Source: Eledone cirrhosa (lineage: Eukaryota). Taken from it: a stretch of 64,000 bases of DNA. Positions 28,451 through 64,000 of the stretch are shown piece by piece (the first letter of the stretch is position 1; the number at the start of each line of letters is the position of its first letter). The stretch is taken from NCBI GenBank assembly GCA_964016885.1, contig OZ024741.1:32612001-32676000 (forward strand), read 5' to 3'. Position numbers and translations under genes: made by a program. Below the pieces are notes generated by a model. It was given only the letters and a program-made list of their open reading frames with translations. It was not told the origin of the DNA and ran no database searches.

Positions 28451-28516
28451 TATTTCATTATATATATTTCAGGGATACCATATTAAAAATATGGTATGCC
28501 TTCCTCAGACAAAATA
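28451..28516 (-). ncRNA. Minimal type I hammerhead ribozyme (mirror copy)
   Basis: Reverse complement of 28650-28715. Confidence 0.72.
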
Positions 28517-28649: not shown

Positions 28650-28715
28650 TATTTTGTCTGAGGAAGGCATACCATATTTTTAATATGGTATCCCTGAAAT
28701 ATATATAATGAAATA
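28650..28715 (+). ncRNA. Minimal type I hammerhead ribozyme
   Basis: Stem I TATTTTGT/ATGAAATA, core CTGAGGA (28658), stem II ATACCATATT-TTT-AATATGGTAT (with unpaired flanks), GAAA (28696), palindromic TATATA, cleavage triplet ATA. Confidence 0.75.
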
Positions 28716-38361: not shown

Positions 38362-38960
38362 CGCTCTACATGGCTGAATACAATAAATGTAATCTGAGTG
38401 TTTCGAATATTAATAATAACATTCAATTCGTTTGCAATTATGCAAACAAGCCTCAATTTTATAGCCATGTCAGTAGAATGAACACTTCATCCTTGCTTTT
38501 GTGTTGGCATGTGAACAGAACTGCAGACACTAATGTTTCTGGGTATCACCCTTCATCAGTACAGCTCACTGTTCACCTGCCAAACTGTCAGAGCTAGTGA
38601 AAATATAAGCTATTTTCAAAAATACACAGTGATTGATCGGCCTGATTTGCATATTAGCAGACTGGCTGATCAGTCAGATCTGCATATTAGCAGATCCAGT
38701 GATCAGCCAGAGTTGCATATCAGCAGACTGGCCAGTCAGTTTCCTGTATACGAGCGGTAAATGGCCGGCTTTGCCAAATTCAAATAAAAAATACATTTTC
38801 GCTCTACATGGCTGAATACAATAAATGTAATCTGAGTTTTTCCAATATTAATAATAACATTCGATTCGGTTGCAATTATGCAAAAAAGCCTCAATTTTAT
38901 AGCCATGTCATTAGAATGATCACTTCATTCTTGCTCTTGTGTTGGCATGCGAACAGAACT
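38359..38960 (-). mobile_element. Partial-tandem (pLTR-like) element with ~163-bp direct repeats, an internal HHR and a 33-bp x3 repeat
   Basis: 38359-38522 is repeated at 38797-38960 (period ~438); 33-mers at ~38633, 38666 and 38699; starts at a (TA)n tract. Confidence 0.7.
38518..38567 (-). ncRNA. Canonical type I hammerhead ribozyme
   Basis: Minus strand GAGCTGTA-CTGATGA-A-GGG-TGATA-CCC-A-GAAA-CA-TTAG-TG-TC^TGCAGTTC: 8-bp stem I (two G-U), intact core, GUC cleavage triplet. Confidence 0.85.
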
Positions 38961-43223: not shown

Positions 43224-43231
43224 TCGCGGTT

Positions 43232-43413
43232 ATTGGATTGGTAGTATCGGTAGAGGGTCGGACGCTATGCTTTCCAGCATAGTTACGTCCCTTTACGATC
43301 TGAGTTCAAATCCCGCCGAGGTTGACTTTGCCTTTCATCCTTACGGGGTCGATAAAATAAAGTACCAGTAAGGCACTGGGTAATTGCTGGCTTTGTGCCT
43401 AAAGTAGAAACAG
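43232..43413 (+). mobile_element. Octopus-type SINE copy
   Basis: Nearly identical to 22947-23112. Confidence 0.85.
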
Positions 43414-43469
<56 letters not shown>

Positions 43470-43471
<2 letters not shown>

Positions 43472-43714
43472 AGTAAGGTTGCTTCGAAGCGTCCACAGGT
43501 GGTATGCCGGTTGAGCACTCTATGCTCATTTGGAGCAGAGTATGATAATATGGAAAACGAAGAATCAGCGATGCATCGAAACACAATTTATTAACGTATT
43601 ACAATTGTTTCTCCGGTGAACAGCTCGAGGTGCGATCTGTTTGTAGATCTCGAACCTGACTCTGGATTTGCAAGTTCCTCAGATACGTCTAGTGATTTCG
43701 AAGCAAATCCACTT

Positions 43715-43718
<4 letters not shown>
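43470..43718 (-). mobile_element. (TA)n-flanked mini-element, same family as 63142-63515
   Basis: Shares GTTGAGCACTCTATG, AATCAG(C/T)GATGCATC, ACAATTGTTTC and CAGCTCGAG blocks with the 63 kb element. Confidence 0.8.
43594..43688 (-). ncRNA. Type I hammerhead with expanded (64-nt) stem II domain
   Basis: Minus strand ACGTAT-CTGAGGA-[64 nt]-GAAA-CAATTG-TA^ATACGT: 6-bp perfect stem I, palindromic stem III, GUA triplet. Confidence 0.75.
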
Positions 43719-43772
<54 letters not shown>

Positions 43773-43806
43773 AGATTTGAATGAATACAGTTTAGTTGAA
43801 AGGAAT

Positions 43807-43926
43807 TTATTGACACGTGTTTCTATAACAGTTACATAACCTGAAACACCTGCTATCTACAAAGTATTAGTTATGCAGACATTCAATATTTCAATGTTAT
43901 TATTTACTGTCATTTCATCAGAATAA
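43807..43926 (-). ncRNA. Expanded-stem-II hammerhead in pLTR (copy 1; another at ~47350-47469)
   Basis: Reverse complement of 50290-50409. Confidence 0.72.
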
Positions 43927-44479
43927 TATTACTGAGGACCTGTTTGATTTTTATAGAGAATATTAAGAGGGAGGGGTGAAGTTGTTAGAAGAATAGTTGA
44001 GGGAATGGTTTTTTGATAGCAGTGAGAATGTTTGGTGGCAGTGAGTAATTAGATTCCCATCTGTTGTTTTGACATTTTTATACAATATATTATTGGTTAT
44101 TTTTCTAAATCTATAGAGAGATTAGAGATAGTAAAGATATGCGTGGCTGGTTTTGTGTTTGCACTTAATTAACATTCAGACTTAAATTTTTCTTTCAAGT
44201 GTACGTATCCTTTCACCCACGCATTCACACACAAACATATTTGCACACCTCTACAAAATACATATACTCACATTCATATAGTAACATGTTCATACTTACA
44301 TACATATACACATGCATATATATATATATACACACATGTATTCATGTACATACATAGGCGTTCATGTGTATACATTTTCATACTCAACTTATCTTTATAT
44401 ACACACGTATAGACACACACATATATACATACATACTCTAGTCTATGTGTATATATATATACATATACATATATATCTA

Positions 44480-44547
<68 letters not shown>

Positions 44548-44823
44548 CACTTTAATACATGAATACACTTACATCTAACTATACACATCAAACATATATA
44601 TATATTTACTTATTTATATACATTTTCACATATATATACATACTTATGGTCGCTTTTAGACACATTCATTATCGCATTTTTGCACCTATTCTCATCAGCA
44701 TATCTTTCCATTATTAGTGTTGTTATTTGAGGTTATTAATATACATATATATGTTGAGAAGAAATTGTTTTTATATTTTTCTAACTAGATTGAGGTTTAT
44801 ATAGTTGGGGGGATGTCCCTCTT

Positions 44824-47145
44824 TTATGTAATATTCGGCTTATAGTGGAAAAAAAGGGTTTTAGTTCGGTGACGGCAGAATAATGTTCGTTCAAATCTGT
44901 TATTCAGCAATTTCTTCTTGTGTGTGATTATGTAATAAATCTCAAGATTACACAATTTGCAGAAATTTTGGCTCCTGGAAAAGCTTTGGGTTTTAGCTAA
45001 TTTCTCCCATTTTAGGGTAAACTTTTGATCGCTATCCCTGAGCGTCCAAGCTATTTCTGCTAAAGTTGTTACATTTCTTTGGCTCTGGTGTTTTATTGAG
45101 TATGAATGCCTATATAATCGAGATTTAAACGATGTTGCCGTTGATCCCACGTAATACCACTCGTTGCCTCCGGATTTAATGGTACACTTATAAATAATAT
45201 TTTTTTCCAGGCAGTTATTGCCGAGGGGGCAGTTGTCAGGATAGGTGCAGTTACAGTTGTGTACGTTGGGTTTTCTCTGGAGTAGTATTGCGGACGAACT
45301 TAGGTGTGGTTTATTTATGTTCTGTAGTGTATTGTCTACTGTTTTTTTTGTGTTCTTTGTACTTAAGTTTTTAGTGTTATCGTTTAACCTTCTAGTATTG
45401 ATCTTTTTTATGTGTTGTTCAAGGTTTAACGCTGTAGAGTATGACAGTCTTATAGTGGTAGGGTTTAGGATGTTGTGGTATTTGTGTGATGTAGGAAAAT
45501 GTCTCTTAATTATTTTAAAGAAGAGTACTGGTAAATGTGTACTAATGGAACTATTGTATTCGGGGTTATACCATAAGTACTCTTTGCATCGCTTTCTATT
45601 AGTTTTGTTTGTTGGTTTAGTGGTGTGCATACTATGGTAGTAAGTGTGGTTTGGTGTTGTGTTATTATATCTACCTATGTGGGATTTATTTGGGGTGTTT
45701 TGATTGTTCCCATCTATATACTCTATTTTGTTGAGGTGGCCTGCTTTACTAAGGGCGTTATCGTAGTACTCGGCGTCTTCCTTAAATACTTGTATGTTAG
45801 AAGATAGACCCGAGATTCTAAGGGAAATAATTTTAGGGATAGATTTAATTATAGAGATGGGGTGGTTAGACCCAACATTTACGTATTTGAGATTTTCATT
45901 CAATTTATGAAACGGTTTAATCAGACCAGAGTTTAAATTGAGTCTGACATCCAGGAAGTTAACTATTTTAAGGTTGTATTCATATGTTATAGTTAGTCCT
46001 ATTTCGAGTAGTTGTTTTCTCGTATCTTTGCGTAATTTTTCTAGTTTTTGGTTATTTAGGTTTTTAACTAGGAGGAGAACATCGTCGCAGTATATTCCGC
46101 CGTGGAGATTGCTGAATTTTTCCTGGAGTCTAAAGGCGATAAATAACCCCACAATATCAGTTATTTCCGCCGAATCGTTAGAGCCCATTGTTATGTCAAA
46201 GTTAGAGGGTCTATCTTTACGTACCCAATAACTGTTCTCAAATTTGACTATAGTTTTCCTAACTTCTAATATAATCTTAATTTCATCGTTTGTAAGGTCA
46301 GAGTTATCCTTAGCAAACGTAATGGCTCTATTCAAAGTTTCAGGTGATATCGATGATTAATATTCATCGATATCAAACTGGATAAACTTAGATTTGTTCT
46401 TATTGCTAATGCTATTATACTATCTTATTGCTTCTTGGGTCTTCCCCCAGAGTTTAATGTTAACCTTAGCCTTAATTTGGGGGATGATTCTATCTAAGAT
46501 ATATTTGCTTATTTTACCTATATCTGATTTAGAGGGTCAGATTAATCTAATTTTAGGGTCATTATCAAAGTTTACCTTATGGTCCTTAAGATTGAAGGTG
46601 GGTACCGCCGGTAAGAGTGGTCGTGTCCTATCTTCGATTCCGAGATTTTTCACTATTTCGCATACCTCATCATTGATGTGCTTAAGAGTTACTTCATTCG
46701 TTTTTCTATATTTTTTATGTAATTCTTTTCGATTGAAGTTGTTGTATGTAGTGAAATCCATAGTATACAGGTTTGATGTTTTGTCAGCTTTTACTACAAT
46801 TCCTTTGGTGTTTTTAAGGTCGTCCAGTAGTTTTTTAATATCTTTCTGTAATTTGTTGTTGGTGTTACGTCCTTTGAATTTTATTTTAAGGAATAAGTTC
46901 ATAAGGTCCTGCTCAAATGCATCTAATAGTGGGTTGGTGGGTGGGTTTTTACACGTTCTAAAACCGAATTTGTTGTTTACACCACTTTCTAATGGTGAGT
47001 TCATACGGTTTCTATCATAGTGGAACGTTTTCCCCCTGCCACGTCGAATGAATTCATTAGTTTTTTTAATCATACTCAATAAGTATTCCTTTTTACCTTG
47101 GGTTGGTATGTTTTTGAGTGACATATCCAGGTAGTGTTTTTCCAT
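44824..47145 (-). pseudogene. PLE polyprotein (RT + C-terminal GIY-YIG endonuclease), 773 codons, three in-frame stops
   Basis: Single frame from MEKHYLDMSLKNIP; motifs VKADKTSNLY, QFDIDEY, MGS, YCDD (YRDD in the twin), FLDV, CNCTYPDNC linker, IIYKC...YYVGST...FKSRLYRH; stops TGA 46537-39, TAG 46420-22, TAA 46357-59. Confidence 0.92.
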
Positions 47146-47596
47146 TGTTGTGGTTGCGTTTGCTGTGTGTGTTGCTCGACTTTACAGGAGGTAAATATAC
47201 AGTATTTTCCGTTGTGTTGTAATATAAATATTACACACAGTAGATTGACAGCTCACGTAGAGTTTTCTCGACGGTTCCAGTTGTAATTGCAAAAGTAATC
47301 CGGAGAAAAATAGAAAGATTTGAATGGATACAGTTTAGTTGAAAGGAATTCATTGACACGTGTTTCTATAACAGTTACATAACCTGAAACAGCTGCTATC
47401 TACAAAGTATTAGTTATGCAGACATTCAATATTTCAATGTTATTATTTACTGTCATTTCATCAGAATAATATTACTGAGGACCTGTTTGGTTTTTATAGA
47501 GAATATTAGGAGGGAGGGGTGAAGTTGTTAGAAGAATAGTTGAGGGAATGGTTTTTTGATAGCAGTGAGAATGTTTGGTGGCAGTGAGTAATTAGA

Positions 47597-49436
47597 TGCG
47601 AAATAGTGAAAAATCTCGGAATCGAAGATAGGACACGACCTCTCTTACCGGCGGTACCCACCTTCAATCTTAAGGACCATAAGGTAAACTTTGATAATGA
47701 CCCTAAAATTAGATTAATCTGCCCCTCTAAATCAGATATAGGTAAAATAAGCAAATATATCTTAGATAGAATCATCCCCCAAATTAAGGCCAAGGTTAAC
47801 ATTAAACTCTGGGGGAAGACCCAAGAAGCAATAAGATGGTTTAATAACATTAGTAATAAGAATAAATCTAAGTTTATCCAGTTTGATATCGATGAATATT
47901 ACTCATCGATATCACCTGAAACTTTGAATAGAGCCATTAAGCTTGCTAAGGATAACTCTGACCTTACAAACGATGAAATTAAGATTATATTATAAGCTAG
48001 GAAAACTATAGTCAAATTTGAGAACAGTTATTGGGTACGTAAAGATAGACTCTCTAACATTGACATAACAATGGGCTCTAACGATTCGGCGGAAATAACT
48101 GATATTGTGGGGTTATTCATCGCCTTTAGACTCCAGGAAAAATTCAGCAATCTCTACGGCGGAATATACCGCGACGATGTCCTCCTCCTAGTTAAAAACC
48201 TAAATAACCAAAAACTAGAAAAATTACGCAAAGATACGAGAAAACAACTACTCGAAATAGGACTAACTATAACATATGAATACAACCTTAAAGTAGTTAA
48301 CTTCCTGGATGTCAGACTCAATTTAAACTCTGGTCTGATTAAACCGTTTCATAAATTGAATGAAAATCTCAAATACGTAAATGTTGGGTCTAACCACCCC
48401 ATCTCTATAATTAAATATATCCCTAAAATTATTTCCCTTAGAATCTCGGGTCTATCTTCTAACATACAAGTATTTAAGGAAGACGCCGATTACTACGATA
48501 ACGCCCTTAGTAAAGCAGGCCACCTCAACAAAATAGAGTATATAGATGGGAACAATCAAAACACCCCAAATAAATCCCACATAGGTAGATATAATAACAC
48601 AACACCAAACCACACTTACTACCATAGTATGCACACCACTAAACCAACAAACAAAACTAATAGAAAGCGATGCAAAGAGTACTTATGGTATAACCCCGAA
48701 TACAATAGTTCCATTAGTACACATTTACCAGTACTCTTCTTTAAAATAATTAAGAGACATTTTCCTACATCACACAAATACCACAAAATCCTAAACCCTA
48801 CCACTATAAGACTGTCATACTCTACAGCGTTAAACCTTGAACAACACATAAAAAAGATCAATACTAGAAGGTTAAACGATAACACTAAAAACTTAAGTAC
48901 AAAGAACACAAAAAAAACAGTAGACAATACACTACAGAACATAAATAAACCACACCTAAGTTCGTCCGCAATACTACTCCAGAGAAAACCCAACGTACAC
49001 AACTGTAACTGCACCTATCCTGACAACTGCCCCCTCGGCAATAACTGCCTGGAAAAAAATATTATTTATAAGTGTACCATTAAATCCGGAGGCAACGAGT
49101 GGTATTACGTGGGATCAACGGCAACATCGTTTAAATCTCGATTATATAGGCATTCTTACTCAATAAAACACCAGAGCCAAAGAAATGTAACAACTTTAGC
49201 AGAAAAAGCTTGGACGCTCAGGGATAGCGATCAAAAGTTTACCCTAAAATGGGAGAAATTAGCTAAAACCCAAAGCTTTTCCAGGAGCCAAAATTTCTGC
49301 AAATTGTGTAATCTTGAGATTTATTACATAATCACACACAAGAAGAAATTGCTGAATAACAGAATTGAACGAACATTATTCTGCCGTCACCGAACTAAAA
49401 CCCTTTTTTTTCCACTATAAGCCGAATATTACATAA
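47597..49436 (+). pseudogene. 5'-truncated inverted copy of the PLE RT-EN ORF
   Basis: ORFs 47606-47995 and 48071-49420 are in one frame, split by TAA at 47993; intact YRDD; extra T near 49410 alters the C-terminus (LFFPL vs LFFHYKPNIT). Confidence 0.92.
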
Positions 49437-50289
49437 AAGAGGGACATCCCCCCAACTATATAAACCTCAGTCTAGTTAGAAAAATATAAAAACAATTTCT
49501 TCTCAACATATATATGTATATTAATAACCTCAAATTACCACACTAATAATGGAAAGATATGCTGATGAGAATAGGTGCAAAAATGCGATAATGAATGTGT
49601 CTAAAAGCGACCATAAGTATGTATATATATGTGAAAATGTATATAAATAAGTAAATATATATATATGTTTGATGTGTATAGTTAGATGTAAGTGTATTCA
49701 TGTATTAAAGTGCTTATATATATATATATATATATATATAGATATATATGTATATGTATATATATACACATAGACTAGAGTATGTATGTATATATGTGTG
49801 TGTCTATACGTGTGTATATAAAGATAAGTTGAGTATGAAAATGTATACACATGAACGCGTATGTATGTACATGAATACATGTGTGTATATATATATGTAT
49901 GCATGTGTATATGTACGTAAGTATGAACATGTTACTATGTGAATTTGAGTATATGTATTTTGTAGAGGTGTGCAAATATGTTTGTGTGTGAATGCGTGGG
50001 TGAAAGGATACGTACACTTGAAAGAAAAATTTAAGTCTGAATGTAAATTATGTGCAAACACAAAACCAGCCACGCATATCTTTACTATCTCTAATCCCTC
50101 TATAGATTTAGAAAAATAACCAATAATATATTCTATAAAAATGTCAAAACAACAGATGGGAATCTAATTACTCACTGCCACCAACAATTCTCACTGCTAT
50201 CAAAAAACCATTCCCTCAACTATTCTTCTAACAACTTCACCCCTCCCTCCAAATATTCTCTATAAAAACCAAACAGGTCCTCAGTAATA

Positions 50290-50409
50290 TTATTCTGATG
50301 AAATGACAGTAAATAATAACATTGAAATATTGAATGTCTGCATAACTAATTCTTTGTAGATAGCAGCTGTTTCAGGTTATGTAACTGTTATAGAAACACG
50401 TGTCAATAA
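50290..50409 (+). ncRNA. Type I hammerhead with 73-nt structured loop II
   Basis: TTATT-CTGATGA(50295)-A-ATGACAGT-[73 nt]-ACTGTTAT-A-GAAA(50393)-CACGTG-TC^AATAA: stem I 5 bp, stem II 8 bp, palindromic stem III, GUC triplet. Confidence 0.78.
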
Positions 50410-50555
50410 ATTCCTTTCAACTAAACTGTATCCATTCAAATCTTTCTATTTTTTCCGGATTACTTTTGGAATTACAACTGGAACCGTCGAGCAAACTCTA
50501 CGTGAGCTGTCAATCTACTGTGTGTAATATTTATATTACAACACAACGGAAAATA

Positions 50556-53219: not shown

Positions 53220-53325
53220 GCTTTCTGATGAAGTGTAGTAATTAATTATGTATTGTATATGATTGAACATAAGCAGTCAGTATATGTAGGCAAATGACAA
53301 TAGATACAGAAACATACGTTAAAGC
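53220..53325 (+). ncRNA. Type I hammerhead with 77-nt stem II region
   Basis: GCTTT-CTGATGA(53225)-[77 nt, with TGTA/TACA, TATTGT/ACAATA and GATTG/CAGTC pairings]-GAAA(53309)-CATACG-TT^AAAGC; just downstream of a TA run. Confidence 0.6.
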
Positions 53326-57398: not shown

Positions 57399-57770
57399 CT
57401 AAGGGATATTTAATTGGTTGATAATTAAACAAATATATATAATTATAACAGATTCGAAGCACTCGAGAGGTTTTCTGGAGTATAATATCAATGATATTTA
57501 TAAATGAAAACTATATTTATAAAACCATATTTATTCTATTATATATATTTCAAGGGTACCAAAACTTTGGTACGCTGTCATCAGATATTTAAAATACAAG
57601 TATCCAGGTTAAACTTGAACCATTAAGGTCTCATTCCTGGATATGTCAATATTTATAAAACAAACTTTGTATGTTATCTGATGAGGGCGTACCAAAGTTT
57701 TGGCACCCTTGAAATATAGATAATAGAATAAATATGGTTTTATAAATATATTTTCCATTTATTTAATATC

Positions 57771-57918: not shown

Positions 57919-57979
<61 letters not shown>

Positions 57980-58470
57980 ATACTTTGGGAGGGTCATGTT
58001 GCCAATAAGAAACACACGCAGCAGTTGCTTTCACTTCAATTTAATTTAATATATATTTATAAATTTACAAATTTATAAATTTCTGGTTGGTTGGTTGGTT
58101 CCACAACCAGATAGTTGTTTATATATATATAGTCATAGTTCTTTCGTCACACACTCTGTGACCTCTTCAGTGACTGGGGATTTCTTTCTTCGTTTCTGTG
58201 CCTTTCCTTTCTTCTATCCTACGCCATTTTGTTTGTGTGTGGGTTGCGTGCTCAGTTTGCGCATGCGCCACATCCGGGTGTCTGTGTGTGTTTGTGTTCA
58301 TTTTCTATTTTTCTATTTATATTTGTTTGTTTATTTATTTATTTATTGTTGGTTGGTTGTTTGTTCTATGTGTGTGTGTGTTTTCATTTTGTCTTGTGTG
58401 TGTTTTCATTTTGTGTGTGTTTTCAATTGTAAGTTGTTTATATATGTGTGTGTGTGTTTTCATTTTGTCC

Positions 58471-59187
58471 TTAATTGTAAGTTGTGATGTTGCTGTTCCA
58501 CTCATATTTTCTATTTAATTTTGGTTTTAATTCTTTTATGCTTACTGCCTCTGTAATTTGCCTAAACATTGCGTCTTTCTTGTGTGTGGATTCTATTTTT
58601 ATTTCTATGCTCTCTAATTTACCCCTGTGTTCTATCTTAGCATGTTGGTAGAGCACAGATGATTCTTTACTATCTTGGAGGTCTCGCCAGTGTTCATTTA
58701 TTCGTTCCCCTATACTACGAGCTGTCTCACCTATGTACACTATATTTTTGTTTCTACATTGTCCCTCAGTACATCTTATGCTATATACTACATTTCTAGT
58801 TTTACAGTTAATATGGGGGCTTATTTTACAGGTTATACATTTCTTATCTATACATGAGGGTCTTTGGAACGGGTATGTCTTGCTAATAAGTGTTTTTACG
58901 GAGGTACCAGGTCTTTCTACTATCTTAATATTGAGATTATGTTTCTTTAGGGCCCTTCTAAATTTGTAGGCTAGTTCACCTCTAGGGGTTGTATTGATGA
59001 ACATTACACTCTGGTATTTATTGCTATCATACCATGAGTTTATTCTATTGGCCTTGTTCTTAGTTCTTTCTATTCTATTCCAAAATTTGCTCCTATACAA
59101 GGGGCAGGTCCCATTTATGTCATTATTTACCATTTTTTCCCATTTGGTTCTGGCTCCTTTATACACTCTGATTCTATCTCTCTGATT
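58471..59187 (-). pseudogene. PLE ORF C-terminal fragment (GIY-YIG endonuclease), mirror copy
   Basis: Identical 231-aa translation to 59284-59979. Confidence 0.9.
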
Positions 59188-59253
59188 CTATCTCTCTGAT
59201 TCTATCTTTATACACTCTGATTCTATCTCTGATTCTATCTCTGATTCTATCTC

Positions 59254-59979
59254 TCTGGCTACAATCAGAGAGATAGAATCAGAGTGTATAAAGGAGCCAG
59301 AACCAAATGGGAAAAAATGGTAAATAATGACATAAATGGGACCTGCCCCTTGTATAGGAGCAAATTTTGGAATAGAATAGAAAGAACTAAGAACAAGGCC
59401 AATAGAATAAACTCATGGTATGATAGCAATAAATACCAGAGTGTAATGTTCATCAATACAACCCCTAGAGGTGAACTAGCCTACAAATTTAGAAGGGCCC
59501 TAAAGAAACATAATCTCAATATTAAGATAGTAGAAAGACCTGGTACCTCCGTAAAAACACTTATTAGCAAGACATACCCGTTCCAAAGACCCTCATGTAT
59601 AGATAAGAAATGTATAACCTGTAAAATAAGCCCCCATATTAACTGTAAAACTAGAAATGTAGTATATAGCATAAGATGTACTGAGGGACAATGTAGAAAC
59701 AAAAATATAGTGTACATAGGTGAGACAGCTCGTAGTATAGGGGAACGAATAAATGAACACTGGCGAGACCTCCAAGATAGTAAAGAATCATCTGTGCTCT
59801 ACCAACATGCTAAGATAGAACACAGGGGTAAATTAGAGAGCATAGAAATAAAAATAGAATCCACACACAAGAAAGACGCAATGTTTAGGCAAATTACAGA
59901 GGCAGTAAGCATAAAAGAATTAAAACCAAAATTAAATAGAAAATATGAGTGGAACAGCAACATCACAACTTACAATTAA
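59254..59979 (+). pseudogene. PLE ORF C-terminal fragment: RT thumb end, Cys linker, GIY-YIG endonuclease with CCHH
   Basis: SGYNQRDRIRVY...CIDKKCITC...NCKTRNVVYSIRCTEGQC...VYIGETARSIGERINEH...LYQHAKIEH...RQITEA...PKLNRKYEW; no RT core and no authentic start. Confidence 0.9.
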
Positions 59980-60274
59980 GGACAAAATGAAAACACACAC
60001 ACACATATATAAACAACTTACAATTGAAAACACACACAAAATGAAAACACACACAAGACAAAATGAAAACACACACACACATAGAACAAACAACCAACCA
60101 ACAATAAATAAATAAATAAACAAACAAATATAAATAGAAAAATAGAAAATGAACACAAACACACACAGACACCCGGATGTGGCGCATGCGCAAACTGAGC
60201 ACGCAACCCACACACAAACAAAATGGCGTAGGATAGAAGAAAGGAAAGGCACAGAAACGAAGAAAGAAATCCCC

Positions 60275-60319
60275 AGTCACTGAAGAGGTCACAGAGTGTG
60301 TGACGAAAGAACTATGACT
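60275..60319 (+). ncRNA. Minimal type I hammerhead in PLE 3' UTR (mirror at 58131-58175, minus strand)
   Basis: AGTCA-CTGAAGA-G-GTCACA-GAGTG-TGTGAC-GAAA-GAAC-TA^TGACT. Confidence 0.85.
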
Positions 60320-60532
60320 ATATATATATAAACAACTATCTGGTTGTGGAACCAACCAACCAACCAGAAATTTATAAATTTGTAAATTTATAAATATATA
60401 TTAAATTAAATTGAAGTGAAAGCAACTGGTGCGTGTGTTTCTTATTGGCAACATGACCCTCCCAAAGTATAACAATATCGGTTTCAACACACGATTTCAG
60501 ATAAAGAATCTTGCTAAACAAATTCAGAAACG

Positions 60533-61104: not shown

Positions 61105-63080
61105 TATTTTACTCTTGATTTGGCCAGATGTATTTATTTCCAGGTACCTTATAAACATGACTTTCCGTATTTGTTACTGTTATGAGATATGGAGGTTTTT
61201 TGGTTGTCACTTCTCTGTCTTTAGCCTAAGAAAATATATATATGCGTGTGTAAATAATGACATGCATACATTTATTTTTTTAAAATTAATTGAGTTCTTA
61301 ACACGTGGAATTGATAATAGTTATGAAATGACTAATTAACCCGCGTGTATTAAATATTTTACTCTTAATTTAGCCAGAGATTTACATTCCCAATCGCCTT
61401 TTAAAGCGTACTTTCCGTATTTACTGCGTTTATGAGATGCGGTTTGTTATTTAGGTATTCACTTCTGTTTTTAGCCTAAGAAAATATCTATATGCGTGTG
61501 TAATTAATACACGCATACATTTATTTTTTCAATTCCAATTGAGTTCTTAACACGTTGGATTTATAATGTTTTTGAAAAAACTAATTAACCCACGTGTTTA
61601 TTATTTTCTTTTCTCGTGAATCGTGGTTGTCTCCCTTTCCCGCTTCGTGACGCTATGAAACTTCCTCAGTCTAAAGACTGCTGGAATTTCAAATTTGGCG
61701 GTCATTCGATGCGTGAGGGAGCAGCTTAGCAGACACGATTTTTAACTGCGGTAAGAATGTTTTCTTATATCAAAGTTTAATGGGCTTCCACTGAAGATTT
61801 ATAAGTGCCCACCTAAATATATTCTTACATGAATGTATGTTAGGCTTCTACATAAACTGGAAACATTCTCCCAATTTGTAGAAAACTTATAATGAAACAA
61901 TTGTTTGGAAAGAGAGATACATTTTAACTTTAATTATATCTCATAAAATAATACAACTGGCTTTCCACAAAATACATATAGTTAGCACCCCAAACACTTA
62001 AATTGGGTTTATACTAACATATAGCCTAATGTTTGTTGAGTGAGATGGTTACCAGTCGGAGTTTAGCTTTAAGCTATCTCTGTTATTGTATTAAATATTT
62101 TACTCTTGATTTGGCCAGTGGTATTTATTTCCAGGTACCTTATAAACATGACTTTCCGTATTTGTTACTGTTATGAGATATGGAGGTTTTTTGGTTGTCA
62201 CTTCTCTGTTTTTAGCCTAAGAAAATATATATATGCGTGTGTAAATAATTACATGCATACATTTATTTTTTTTAATTAATTGAGTTCTTAACACGTGGAA
62301 TTGATAATAGTTATGAAATTACTAATTAACCCGCGTGTATTAAATATTTTACTCTTAATTTAGCCAAAGATTTACATTCCCAATCGCCTTTTAAAGCGTA
62401 CTTTCCGTATTTACTGCGTTTATGAGATGCGGTTTGTTATTTAGGTATTCACTTCTGTTTTTAGCCAAAGAAAATATCTATATGCGTGTGTAATTAATAC
62501 ACGCATACATTTATTTTTTTAATTTCAATTGAGTTCTTAACACGTTGGATTGATAATATTTTTGAAAAAACTAATTAACCCCCGTGTTTATTATTTTCTT
62601 TTTTCGTGAATCGTGGTTGTCTCCCTTTCCCGCTTCGTGACGCTATGAAACTTCCTCAGTCAAAAGACTGCTGGAATTTCAAATTTGGCGGTCATTCGTG
62701 CGTGAGGGAGCAGCTTAGCAGACACGATTTTTAACTGCGGTAAGAATTTTTTCTTATATCAAAGTTTAATGGGCTTCCACTGAAGATTTATAAGTGCCCA
62801 CCTAAATATATTCTTACATGAATGTATGTTAGGCTTCTACATAAACTGGAAACATTCTCCCAATTTGTAGAAAACTTATAATGAAACAATTGTTTGGAAA
62901 GAGAGATATATTTTAACTTTAATTATATCTCATAAAATAATACAACTGGCTTTCCACAAAATACATATAGTTAGCACCCCAAACACTTAAATTGGGTTTA
63001 TACTAACATATAGCCTAATGTTTGTTGAGTGAGATGGTTACCAGTCGGAGTTTAACTTTAAGCTATCTCTGTTATTGTAT

Positions 63081-63085: not shown

Positions 63086-63141
<56 letters not shown>

Positions 63142-63146
<5 letters not shown>

Positions 63147-63515
63147 GAAAAAAATCAGTGATGCATCTGGACTCAATTTATTGTGTGTTACAATTGTTTC
63201 GCCGGCAGACAGCTCGAGACATGATGATTGTATGGATCTGTTTGATTCTAGAACTGCGAGTTCGTCGGACAGTTGTATTAATTTCGGAGAAAATTTGTTC
63301 CGAAATTATTGCAAGTGTCCGACGAACCTGCAATTCTAGAATCAGACAGATCCATACAATGATCATGTCTCGAGCTGTCTGCCCGAGAAACAATTGTAAC
63401 ACACAATAAATTGAGTCCAGATGCATCACTGATTTTTGGTTTTATATTATATCACACTCTACTCTGTAAAAACATAGAGTGCTCAACTGGCCTATGGAAG
63501 CATCATAGCTATCTT
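63142..63515. mobile_element. Fold-back mini-element (~130-bp arms + ~70-bp tail)
   Basis: 63142-63271 mirrors 63316-63443; tail is homologous to 43480-43550. Confidence 0.88.
63315..63402 (+). ncRNA. Hammerhead with C4 core variant and 61-nt stem II region (mirror at 63185-63271, minus strand)
   Basis: GTGT-CCGACGA-[61 nt incl. CAGACAG/CTGTCTG]-GAAA-CAATTG-TA^ACAC. Confidence 0.68.
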
Positions 63516-64000
63516 TAAACACACACACACATATATATATAAAAAAAAAAAACTAAAAAAAAAAACAATAATAAAATGTTACTTTTCAAATCTGCGTTAA
63601 AAGCTGATGTAACAATGATGGTTATAACGGCACTCCCGAGTTGTCATCTGTAACAAGCATCATATCATTAATCATTTTTTTATTCCAAAATATTTCGTTA
63701 TAGTCAAATGATTTACGATATCATATGTGGAAATTATATGTTGCTACTAAATTATAGAAGCGTTTTTATTTCTTTGCCTGTTGCTACATTTTAGAATTAC
63801 ACAGGTTTAACTTCTTTAACATAGGTTAGTATCCGTAGACTACTAACTGTAATATTTTGGTGTGTAGTGCTTCCCATCATAATTACTTCGGTATATTGTA
63901 TTCTATTTTATAAAATATAACTGACGACTTTACAATTATGAATAGAATGTAACCAGGTTTTAAAGCATTTGTTGTGGCACATGTCAGTGGCTTGATAAAT

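Follow-up and report, generated by a model that had tools for sequence, protein, structure and literature searches.

The 43.6 kb motif and its relatives in the window

The 64,000-nt stretch of Eledone cirrhosa DNA analyzed here (the window) contains a hammerhead motif on the minus strand at 43593-43689, which belongs to a repeat family designated family A. In the reading direction, the 43.6 kb copy begins with the 5' strand of stem I, GACGTAT (43689-43683), as located by sequence and alignment, and proceeds through the canonical core box CUGAGGA (43676-43682), a 64-nt domain II (43612-43675) and the GAAA, CAAUUG and UA elements (43600-43611), of which CAAUUG forms a palindromic stem III, to the 3' strand of stem I, ATACGTT (43599-43593). 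Stem I consists of 7 bp, including one G-U pair, and is one base pair longer than the ACGTAT/ATACGT helix that an earlier sequence-only reading reported together with the CTGAGGA core; the letters of both are present as reported. Domain II comprises a basal helix of eight positions, inner helices and an apical GAUC/GAUC hairpin. It measures 62 nt in most family A copies versus 64 nt at 43.6 kb, and the basal helix of the family carries mismatches at 10.1/11.1 and 10.4/11.4. CUGAGGA is found in 35 of 36 family A motif copies, which were extracted with CYGANGA as a required element. Immediately 3' of stem I lies AATAAA (43587-43592), a putative polyadenylation signal that families A and B retain and that differs in position or letters in others. 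Hammerhead numbering places the predicted cleavage site 3' of GUA, between 43600 and 43599.

A homologous stretch (70% over 259 nt, blastn E-value of 1e-27) lies on the plus strand at 63.3 kb and represents family B. Its motif (63315-63402) combines stem I strands GTGT (63315-63318) and ACAC (63399-63402), the core CCGACGA, in which C replaces U at position 4 (U4C), a 61-nt domain II and GAAA-CAATTG-TA, in agreement with the earlier report of these letters and of a GAAA-CAATTG-TA block and a domain II of 61-64 nt in the two copies. The surrounding family B pseudo-LTR fragment (63293-63540, plus strand) includes a tail and ends in (CA)n(TA)n. An inverted, tail-less partner at 63136-63294 on the minus strand (71% over 165 nt), which the earlier reading did not mention, holds a third motif that matches the family model at 63179-63274 with 73 bits and has a stem I reduced to 3 bp.

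The 43.6 and 63.3 kb motif is real and is not a product of chance. A type I descriptor that allows a domain II of up to 120 nt yielded 15 matches in the 18.2-64 kb part of the window versus a mean of 0.3 (maximum of 3) in 100 dinucleotide shuffles of this part, and the additional requirement of a palindromic stem III left 9 matches versus none in the shuffles. In an Rfam scan, no hammerhead family appeared among the best 150 of 196 matches at E<=5, and these 150 were exclusively microsatellite-driven miRNA matches.

A further long-armed motif, with a 91-nt arm and CACGTG, is located at 50290-50409 on the plus strand, with additional copies at 47350-47469 and 43807-43926 on the minus strand, and belongs to Penelope-like elements (PLEs) of a different Hydra-clade family. 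It had been described as unrelated to the 43.6 kb sequence. At the DNA level this holds, given that blastn detected no similarity between the 43.6/63.3 kb motifs and the 50.3 kb motif and that the family model matched only the first 33 nt of the latter (12.9 bits, E-value of 1.5). In kind, however, the motifs correspond, because the 50.3 kb motif occupies the equivalent position in another Hydra-clade element, approximately 210 nt upstream of the start codon (ATG) of a further Hydra-type ORF within the window. The reverse transcriptase (RT) of the 50.3 kb element is approximately 45% identical to that of family B. The inverted pair of broken Hydra-clade RT and GIY-YIG ORFs at 44824-49420 belongs to the 50.3 kb motif family and not to families A and B. 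The region 43767-50449 consists of nested inverted repeats of one Hydra-clade element, with arms of 1815, 778, 411 and 292 nt. This element shares its (TA)n insertion run with the 43.6 kb fragment, and a SINE-like repeat (43230-43400) lies just before the run.

The host element

Genome copies delimit the 43.6 kb repeat as a 5'-truncated pseudo-LTR fragment of family A at 43470-43715 on the minus strand, inserted in (TA)n. The 3.0-Gb genome gave 3199 first-look candidates for family A and 3633 for family B. Among the 40 copies scored per family, the main copies of the two families are 90-95% identical, and the best family A copies are 90-93% identical across the whole 246 nt. Family A copies have a fixed 3' end at a microsatellite; copies of both families are variably truncated at the 5' end and stop at a single site within (TA)n or (CA)n. 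An inverted upstream copy was observed at 12 of 30 family A loci, and 11 of these 12 copies end at query position 163-172 of 246. These end points define a tail of approximately 75 nt (43470-43545, minus strand) that is absent from the inverted partner copies. An inverted repeat combined with a tail is a signature of PLEs (PMC8557442; PMC3846280; here and below, published work is cited from the portions of each source available to us), although the published tails are shorter, at 30-40 bp (PMC8557442). A pseudo-LTR, an inverted 5'-truncated partner and a 3' tail are thus all present.

The coding part of the element was identified at loci extended to 6.4 kb. RT and GIY-YIG sequences lie upstream of the motif on the same strand at two of six family A loci and four of 12 family B loci (L061, L063, L068, L069, L075 and L078), with the RT followed by a C-terminal GIY-YIG endonuclease (EN) as in EN+ PLEs. 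The motif is located 1.5-3.8 kb downstream of this ORF and is collinear with it through a common GT-rich 3' region. At locus L077, the upstream repeat runs without a gap through the motif, AATAAA, tail and a short microsatellite into the ORF, and the ATG lies approximately 180 nt after the predicted cut. The proteins carry a CxCX5C linker, DKT and RWR motifs, and CxxC and CxH motifs around E and N. The Hydra clade is defined by CxCX5C, DKT, an RWK-type motif, CxxC plus CxH, and insertion into (TA)n (PMC8557442), and these signatures are present with RWR instead of RWK in family B; they were read mainly from family B loci, and the EN of family A is 72-77% identical to them in DNA. Pfam returned no family for three ORFs of the window, and the domain assignment therefore rests on the motifs and on similarity among these proteins. 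An initial assignment to the Nematis clade was dropped in favor of Hydra on the basis of the protein signatures. A non-LTR retrozyme, which would form short tandem head-to-tail repeats without an ORF, does not fit copies that are solo or inverted and attached to ORFs. Judged by sequence, the 43.6 and 63.3 kb stretches are truncated pseudo-LTRs of two high-copy Hydra-clade PLE families. The earlier reading recognized the hammerhead fold and overlooked this host.

Several features accompany the element. TTACAG is conserved 9 nt before the ATG in two families (L077 at approximately 1280-1295, and L102) and is a putative 3' splice site; if it were used as an acceptor, the hammerhead, AATAAA and tail might conceivably reside in a 5' UTR intron, as in Penelope. 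In families A and B, CCAAT-like and TGACGT-like boxes precede the motif by 100-250 nt (L004, L010, L033 and L034), and we take them to be a possible internal promoter. Relative to the Hydra ORF of the window, the RT region of the family B ORF is enlarged by a long T/R/H-rich stretch of low complexity (L075, 2114-3755; L078, 2090-2750), which recalls the N-rich inserts of rotifer Penelope ORFs (PMC3846280).

Conservation of base pairing

The claim of compensatory stem I changes between the 43.6 and 63.3 kb copies was correct for pair 1.2, which changes from A-U to G-C, and was otherwise overstated: pairs 1.1, 1.3 and 1.4 are unchanged, and pairs 1.5 and 1.6 are unpaired in most copies of the 63.3 kb family, leaving a stem I of only 4 bp in most family B copies. 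The two-copy argument is consequently thin on its own. A wider alignment nevertheless supports the reading that the fold is like that of a type I hammerhead, has an expanded domain II and is constrained in its pairing, since it bears out stems I, II and III. Stem I is kept, with 90.7% of cells paired and double changes at four of five pairs. When 17 pairs were placed at fixed core offsets in 30 sequences, 86.9% of cells were paired and 10 pairs showed double changes, compared with 21-50% paired cells in slid-partner controls. The alternative register with a bulged N9.1, which is usual in PLE hammerheads, gave no pairing in families A, B and C (slid controls, 21-50%).

At the level of majority letters in five families, eight of the 14 pairs that are canonical in family A changed in a compensatory manner versus 3.0 under a null of 20,000 draws matched for variability (P=0.0011), with such changes in each of stems I, II and III, five of them in stem II, and 54 of 56 cells were paired versus 39.3 expected; the five sub-families are related, so that these covariation tests are not fully independent, and rows picked by pattern carry the core by construction. 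RNAalifold, applied to 23 sequences, recovered the domain II rod unaided, with 16 pairs of which eight are compensatory, and did not include stem I in its prediction. In the full 31-pair model, 87.7% of cells are paired. Three helical segments of domain II covary, and hardly any variation is seen in the arm's inner loop. Next to the core, six of eight stem II positions are paired in families A and B and all eight in family C. Stem III remains self-complementary through a swap between CAAUUG and CAUAUG. In these alignments, the comparison between element families shows stems I, II and III kept paired via compensatory changes.

Two processes other than selection on an RNA fold could have been responsible for the conserved letters. 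An upstream reading frame or the N-terminus of the ORF might explain them, with the hammerhead appearance being incidental. Consistent with this idea, an ATG-started frame of approximately 85 codons runs through the motif in some family B copies, U4C, N7, 10.1 and 11.1 all fall at third codon positions, and spacer lengths of 58, 61 and 64 preserve the frame. However, differences between families are spread as 71/70/63 over codon positions 1/2/3, most family B and typical family C copies contain an in-frame stop, and most family A copies contain a frameshift. The compensatory stem changes are mostly non-synonymous, and the main ORF begins approximately 180 nt further on. Given the even spread and the stops or frameshifts typical of the three families, we reject coding constraint as a very improbable explanation.

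Alternatively, hairpin correction at the DNA level or template switching during PLE copying could generate pairing, and the motif would be a neutral relic. PLE copying indeed produces inverted structures throughout the window, and the copies decay neutrally. Such a process, however, would preserve neither the unpaired core boxes and two fixed mismatches nor the sense-strand orientation seen in 54 of 54 metagenome motifs, which lie on the ORF strand, and it would not keep a palindrome that swaps among four hexamers. We regard this origin as scarcely credible and favor selection on the folded RNA.

The catalytic core and the state of the copies

The hammerhead core, consisting of C3-U4-G5-A6-N7-G8-A9, G12-A13-A14-A15.1, U16.1 and H17, is found in the 43.6 kb copy and in families A, C and F. 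Family B departs from it by U4C in 30 of 33 motif copies, as do family D and others. The G10.1-C11.1 pair is lacking in both flagged families, with A.A in 32 of 36 family A copies and A.C in 28 of 33 family B copies; the earlier reading gave the letters of the 63.3 kb core correctly but overlooked its U4C nature and this missing pair. G10.1-C11.1 is present in 26 of 26 family C copies, most of which were found with a search pattern that required it. Family C combines a 58-nt domain II and a perfect stem II of 8 bp with a canonical core, and its pattern has 132 exact matches in the genome (control, 0). Additional sister families from pattern searches are D, E, F and H. The CAATTG pattern has 2,460 exact matches in the genome (control, 0) and its palindrome-swapped version 1,562 (control, 5), the latter mostly CATATG by eye. 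U4C is not confined to the Eledone cirrhosa genome, because a short-armed metagenome motif (L241, 2928, plus strand) also has a U4C core.

These departures raise the possibility that families A, B, D and F lost the chemistry and that a catalytically dead fold was kept as a scaffold, with the element protein bound to the long arm or to the dimer so as to serve packaging or to position the start of reverse transcription at the tail. Such a role would fit with U4C being fixed in family B and frequent in further sub-families whose copies nonetheless run into the thousands, with the absence of pairing at 10.1/11.1 in most family A and B copies and in 27 of 30 longer-armed loci, and with the nearly invariant inner loop of the arm. 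It would also fit with the Anolis PLE, whose cleavage is dispensable for insertion in vitro and for which no RNA ends were mapped to the site in the available text (PMC11167929). On the other hand, no variation occurs at C3, G5, A6, G8, A9, G12-A15 and U16 in alignments of 30 and 23 sequences, in part as a consequence of the pattern searches from which some of the rows came, and copies picked without bias by BLAST never have G at H17. U.U or another mismatch at 10.1/11.1 is usual in published Hydra hammerheads, with U.U common in the metagenome motifs as well; U.U is described as the best tolerated mismatch at this position and supports cleavage (PMC3088659). According to the same source, U4C "considerably decreases activity in vitro" yet is viable as a natural viroid variant. 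Loss of catalysis is thus, in our judgment, an improbable account.

The two flagged copies themselves are a different matter. Although their motif letters are those of hammerheads, both are decayed in stem II, which the earlier reading missed: the predicted stem II probability is 0 in both versus approximately 1 in a family C copy. Changes private to the 43.6 kb copy, at 43669 and 43617, disrupt its pairs 10.7 and 10.6, and the other letter at these positions amounts to 95% and 92% of the contig depth, respectively (run X1; DNA reads from one sample). As monomers, the flagged copies fold no better than shuffles (z-scores of -0.61 and -1.36), and the 50.3 kb motif gives a z-score of -2.77. The basal helix exceeds a probability of 0.5 in 17 of 36 A, 21 of 33 B, 14 of 28 C, four of 21 F and none of three F3 copies. 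In family A, the core sites drift at much the same rate as the insert (0.021 versus 0.025), which indicates that individual copies are not under selection; the corresponding values in family B are 0.000 versus 0.038. Judged from the aligned copies, constraint acted on the parent elements and not on individual insertions. Lacking a promoter, truncated and disrupted in stem II, the flagged copies are both predicted to have no activity. The 43.6 kb motif is a decayed end-fragment, and its value lies in the family series to which it points.

Distribution of long arms

The earlier reading presented the motif as a second family with an expanded stem II; pattern searches instead place it among many long-armed families in this genome. 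A pattern with a 50-75 nt spacer has approximately 4,000 exact matches, and one with a 76-105 nt spacer has 21,620 versus 202 for a reversed control. Among the first 30 loci of the latter, the hexamer is palindromic in 28 (chance, approximately 1 in 8) and four different palindromes occur; 20 loci have a stem I of at least 4 bp, 27 lack pairing at the first stem II position, and several adjoin Hydra-type ORFs. Short arms are found in the same genome, with 11,275 matches to a 10-39 nt pattern versus 2,186 in the control and Hydra-type ORF pieces at four of 20 loci examined. A family with an 83-nt arm and one with a 20-nt arm share stem I by eye, which hints that arm length changed repeatedly.

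In marine metagenomes, a single-protein search gave no match, and an alignment-based search yielded Hydra-like loci, 45 of 80 of which carry the motif. The arms of the 54 metagenome motifs are short (53 of at most 30 nt and one of 39 nt; reversed control, 1). An unrooted EN tree separates 13 rows of this genome from 36 metagenome rows by one branch (100/95); the tree includes no short-armed element of this genome and thus cannot separate "long arm" from "same host". The EN of L087 groups with another family and probably belongs to a nested element.

Arms of other shapes were also noted. Two long-armed motifs (61786-61910 and 62775-62899, plus strand), with 96 nt, CAATTG and a predicted cut after GUU, lie approximately 990 bp apart in a tandem repeat, and in their relatives (L171, L172 and L191) the arm folds into a two-hairpin branch and not a rod. 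A motif at 53220-53325 (plus strand) has a 77-nt arm and a near-palindromic CATACG.

Relation to known hammerheads

Hammerheads in Penelope terminal repeats are already known, and what is new here is the long structured arm. In the literature consulted, no description of long-armed Hydra hammerheads was found. Examples may be contained in Repbase/Dfam, in the 2017 work of Luense et al., which reportedly describes small PLE hammerheads cleaving as dimers, and in the 2017 work of Arkhipova et al. on Terminons, which is said to use relaxed hammerhead descriptors. The available text of a retrozyme preprint (10.64898/2026.07.22.740005) and that of the squid genome paper describe none.

The closest relatives are the Hydra-clade PLE hammerheads of Craig et al. 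(2021; PMC8557442, File S2), which include Hydra-1_oBim from Octopus bimaculoides. They share with the present motifs the type I topology, the sense-strand position in the pseudo-LTR, a CUGANGA/GAAA core, a short self-complementary stem III, a stem II base that is often non-G-C or has extra nucleotides, and a (TA)n-targeting host with identical protein signatures. By eye, stem II of Hydra-1_oBim resembles the basal helix of family C. However, all 26 Hydra rows in the part of File S2 available to us have a loop 2 of 3-10 nt and a domain II of at most 26 nt, so that the Eledone cirrhosa domains, at 57-64 nt and at 80-105 nt in other families, are more than twice as long, and U4C cores, present in family B, are absent from those rows. 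The arm of canonical hammerhead geometry is likewise far shorter.

Metazoan minimal PLE hammerheads (Cervera and de la Pena, 2014; PMC4209133) also reside in the pseudo-LTR and resemble the present motifs in their palindromic stem III, which implies dimers, short stem I, inverted motif pairs and thousands of solo truncated copies. The descriptor given there (stem II of 3-7 bp, loop 2 of 3-10 nt and CUGANGA only) leaves the present 57-64 nt motifs outside, and the 56 aligned examples in that source are all short-armed with a consensus G10.1-C11.1. The nearest long-loop PLE examples in the print available to us are the spike-moss elements PLE-X1_sMoe and PLE-X1_sTam (PMC8557442), with loops of 35 and 29 nt, respectively, a domain II of approximately 54 nt in sMoe and a flag as deviating from canonical. 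They are nevertheless single examples, presented there without covariation analysis, from plant, endonuclease-less, Chlamys-related elements of unrelated sequence. Poseidon PAc of Anolis carolinensis (Frangieh et al., 2024; PMC11167929) shares the pseudo-LTR hammerhead near the ORF start and a protein-assisted cleavage model. It belongs to a different clade, however, and its motif overlaps the start codon, whereas the Eledone cirrhosa ATG lies approximately 180 nt downstream; its activity has been demonstrated, whereas that of families A and B is a prediction.

Proposed mechanism

We consider it likely that the 43.6 kb locus is a decayed end-fragment of a Hydra-clade PLE with a type I hammerhead whose domain II is a 57-64 nt rod, and that intact elements self-cleave slowly as a double hammerhead. 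A transcript through two repeats, or two RNAs, would pair the self-complementary AACAAUUGU tracts into a stem III shared by two active sites. Cleavage would occur after GUA, 7-8 nt before AAUAAA and approximately 180 nt before the ATG, and the cut would release unit-length element RNA from tandem or read-through transcripts. By analogy with the Anolis PLE, whose hammerhead needs the PLE protein for cleavage (PMC11167929), the element's protein probably assists. In the simplest view, the long arm would be helix II lengthened at its distal end, which the core can accommodate; its conserved inner loop may bind a protein or make a tertiary contact.

Weak cleavage, in dimeric form, has been described for metazoan PLE hammerheads (PMC4209133), and predicted dimers of families A and C are consistent with this mode for stem III. 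Cofolding of two typical copies of family A (L019) or family C (L123) gave the double-hammerhead arrangement with an 8-bp intermolecular helix, in which stem III forms next to A15.1-U16.1. Cofolds of family F and B copies gave no clean double hammerhead. We would on balance expect measurable cleavage from family-typical family C dimers; for family A dimers it appears possible, with the chances somewhat against it, and for family B (U4C) dimers it is doubtful.

A bolder proposal is that helix II has turned into a 60-105 nt domain with its own job, such as protein binding or cleavage gating, and that several very successful families later let the core decay, through U4C and loss of the 10.1-11.1 pair, while keeping the fold. 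We think this unlikely; on this view, a ribozyme would have been caught becoming a protein-binding scaffold, with more than 25,000 copies invisible to published descriptors. In such a genome, tens of thousands of motifs escape Rfam and published descriptors (loop 2 of at most 10 nt). The role of PLE hammerheads is treated as an open question in the available parts of PMC4209133, PMC11167929 and PMC8557442. The Eledone cirrhosa families offer a natural series on one scaffold, with arms of 11-20, 57-64 and 80-105 nt and both canonical and U4C cores. All families of the series were amplified to high copy number, which makes it directly testable whether cleavage is needed and what the arm does.

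Other features of the window

Inverted hammerhead pairs with a domain II of 26-31 nt and a TATATA-type stem III occur at 28451-28516 (minus strand) and 28650-28715 (plus strand) and at 57530-57590 (minus strand) and 57674-57726 (plus strand). A perfect inverted repeat of 1219 nt at 57972-60478 carries a different PLE endonuclease ORF (59245-59979, CX4CxxC linker) and contains a hammerhead motif with an 18-nt arm at 60275-60319 and 58131-58175. The first approximately 18,200 nt of the window form a tandem satellite with a 66-bp unit in approximately 272 copies that are 94-98% alike. Finally, the minus strand at 38518-38567 holds a compact type I hammerhead of canonical appearance, whose stem I has 8 bp and whose domain II has 13 nt; to judge from its sequence, it is possibly the best candidate in the window for activity as a monomer.
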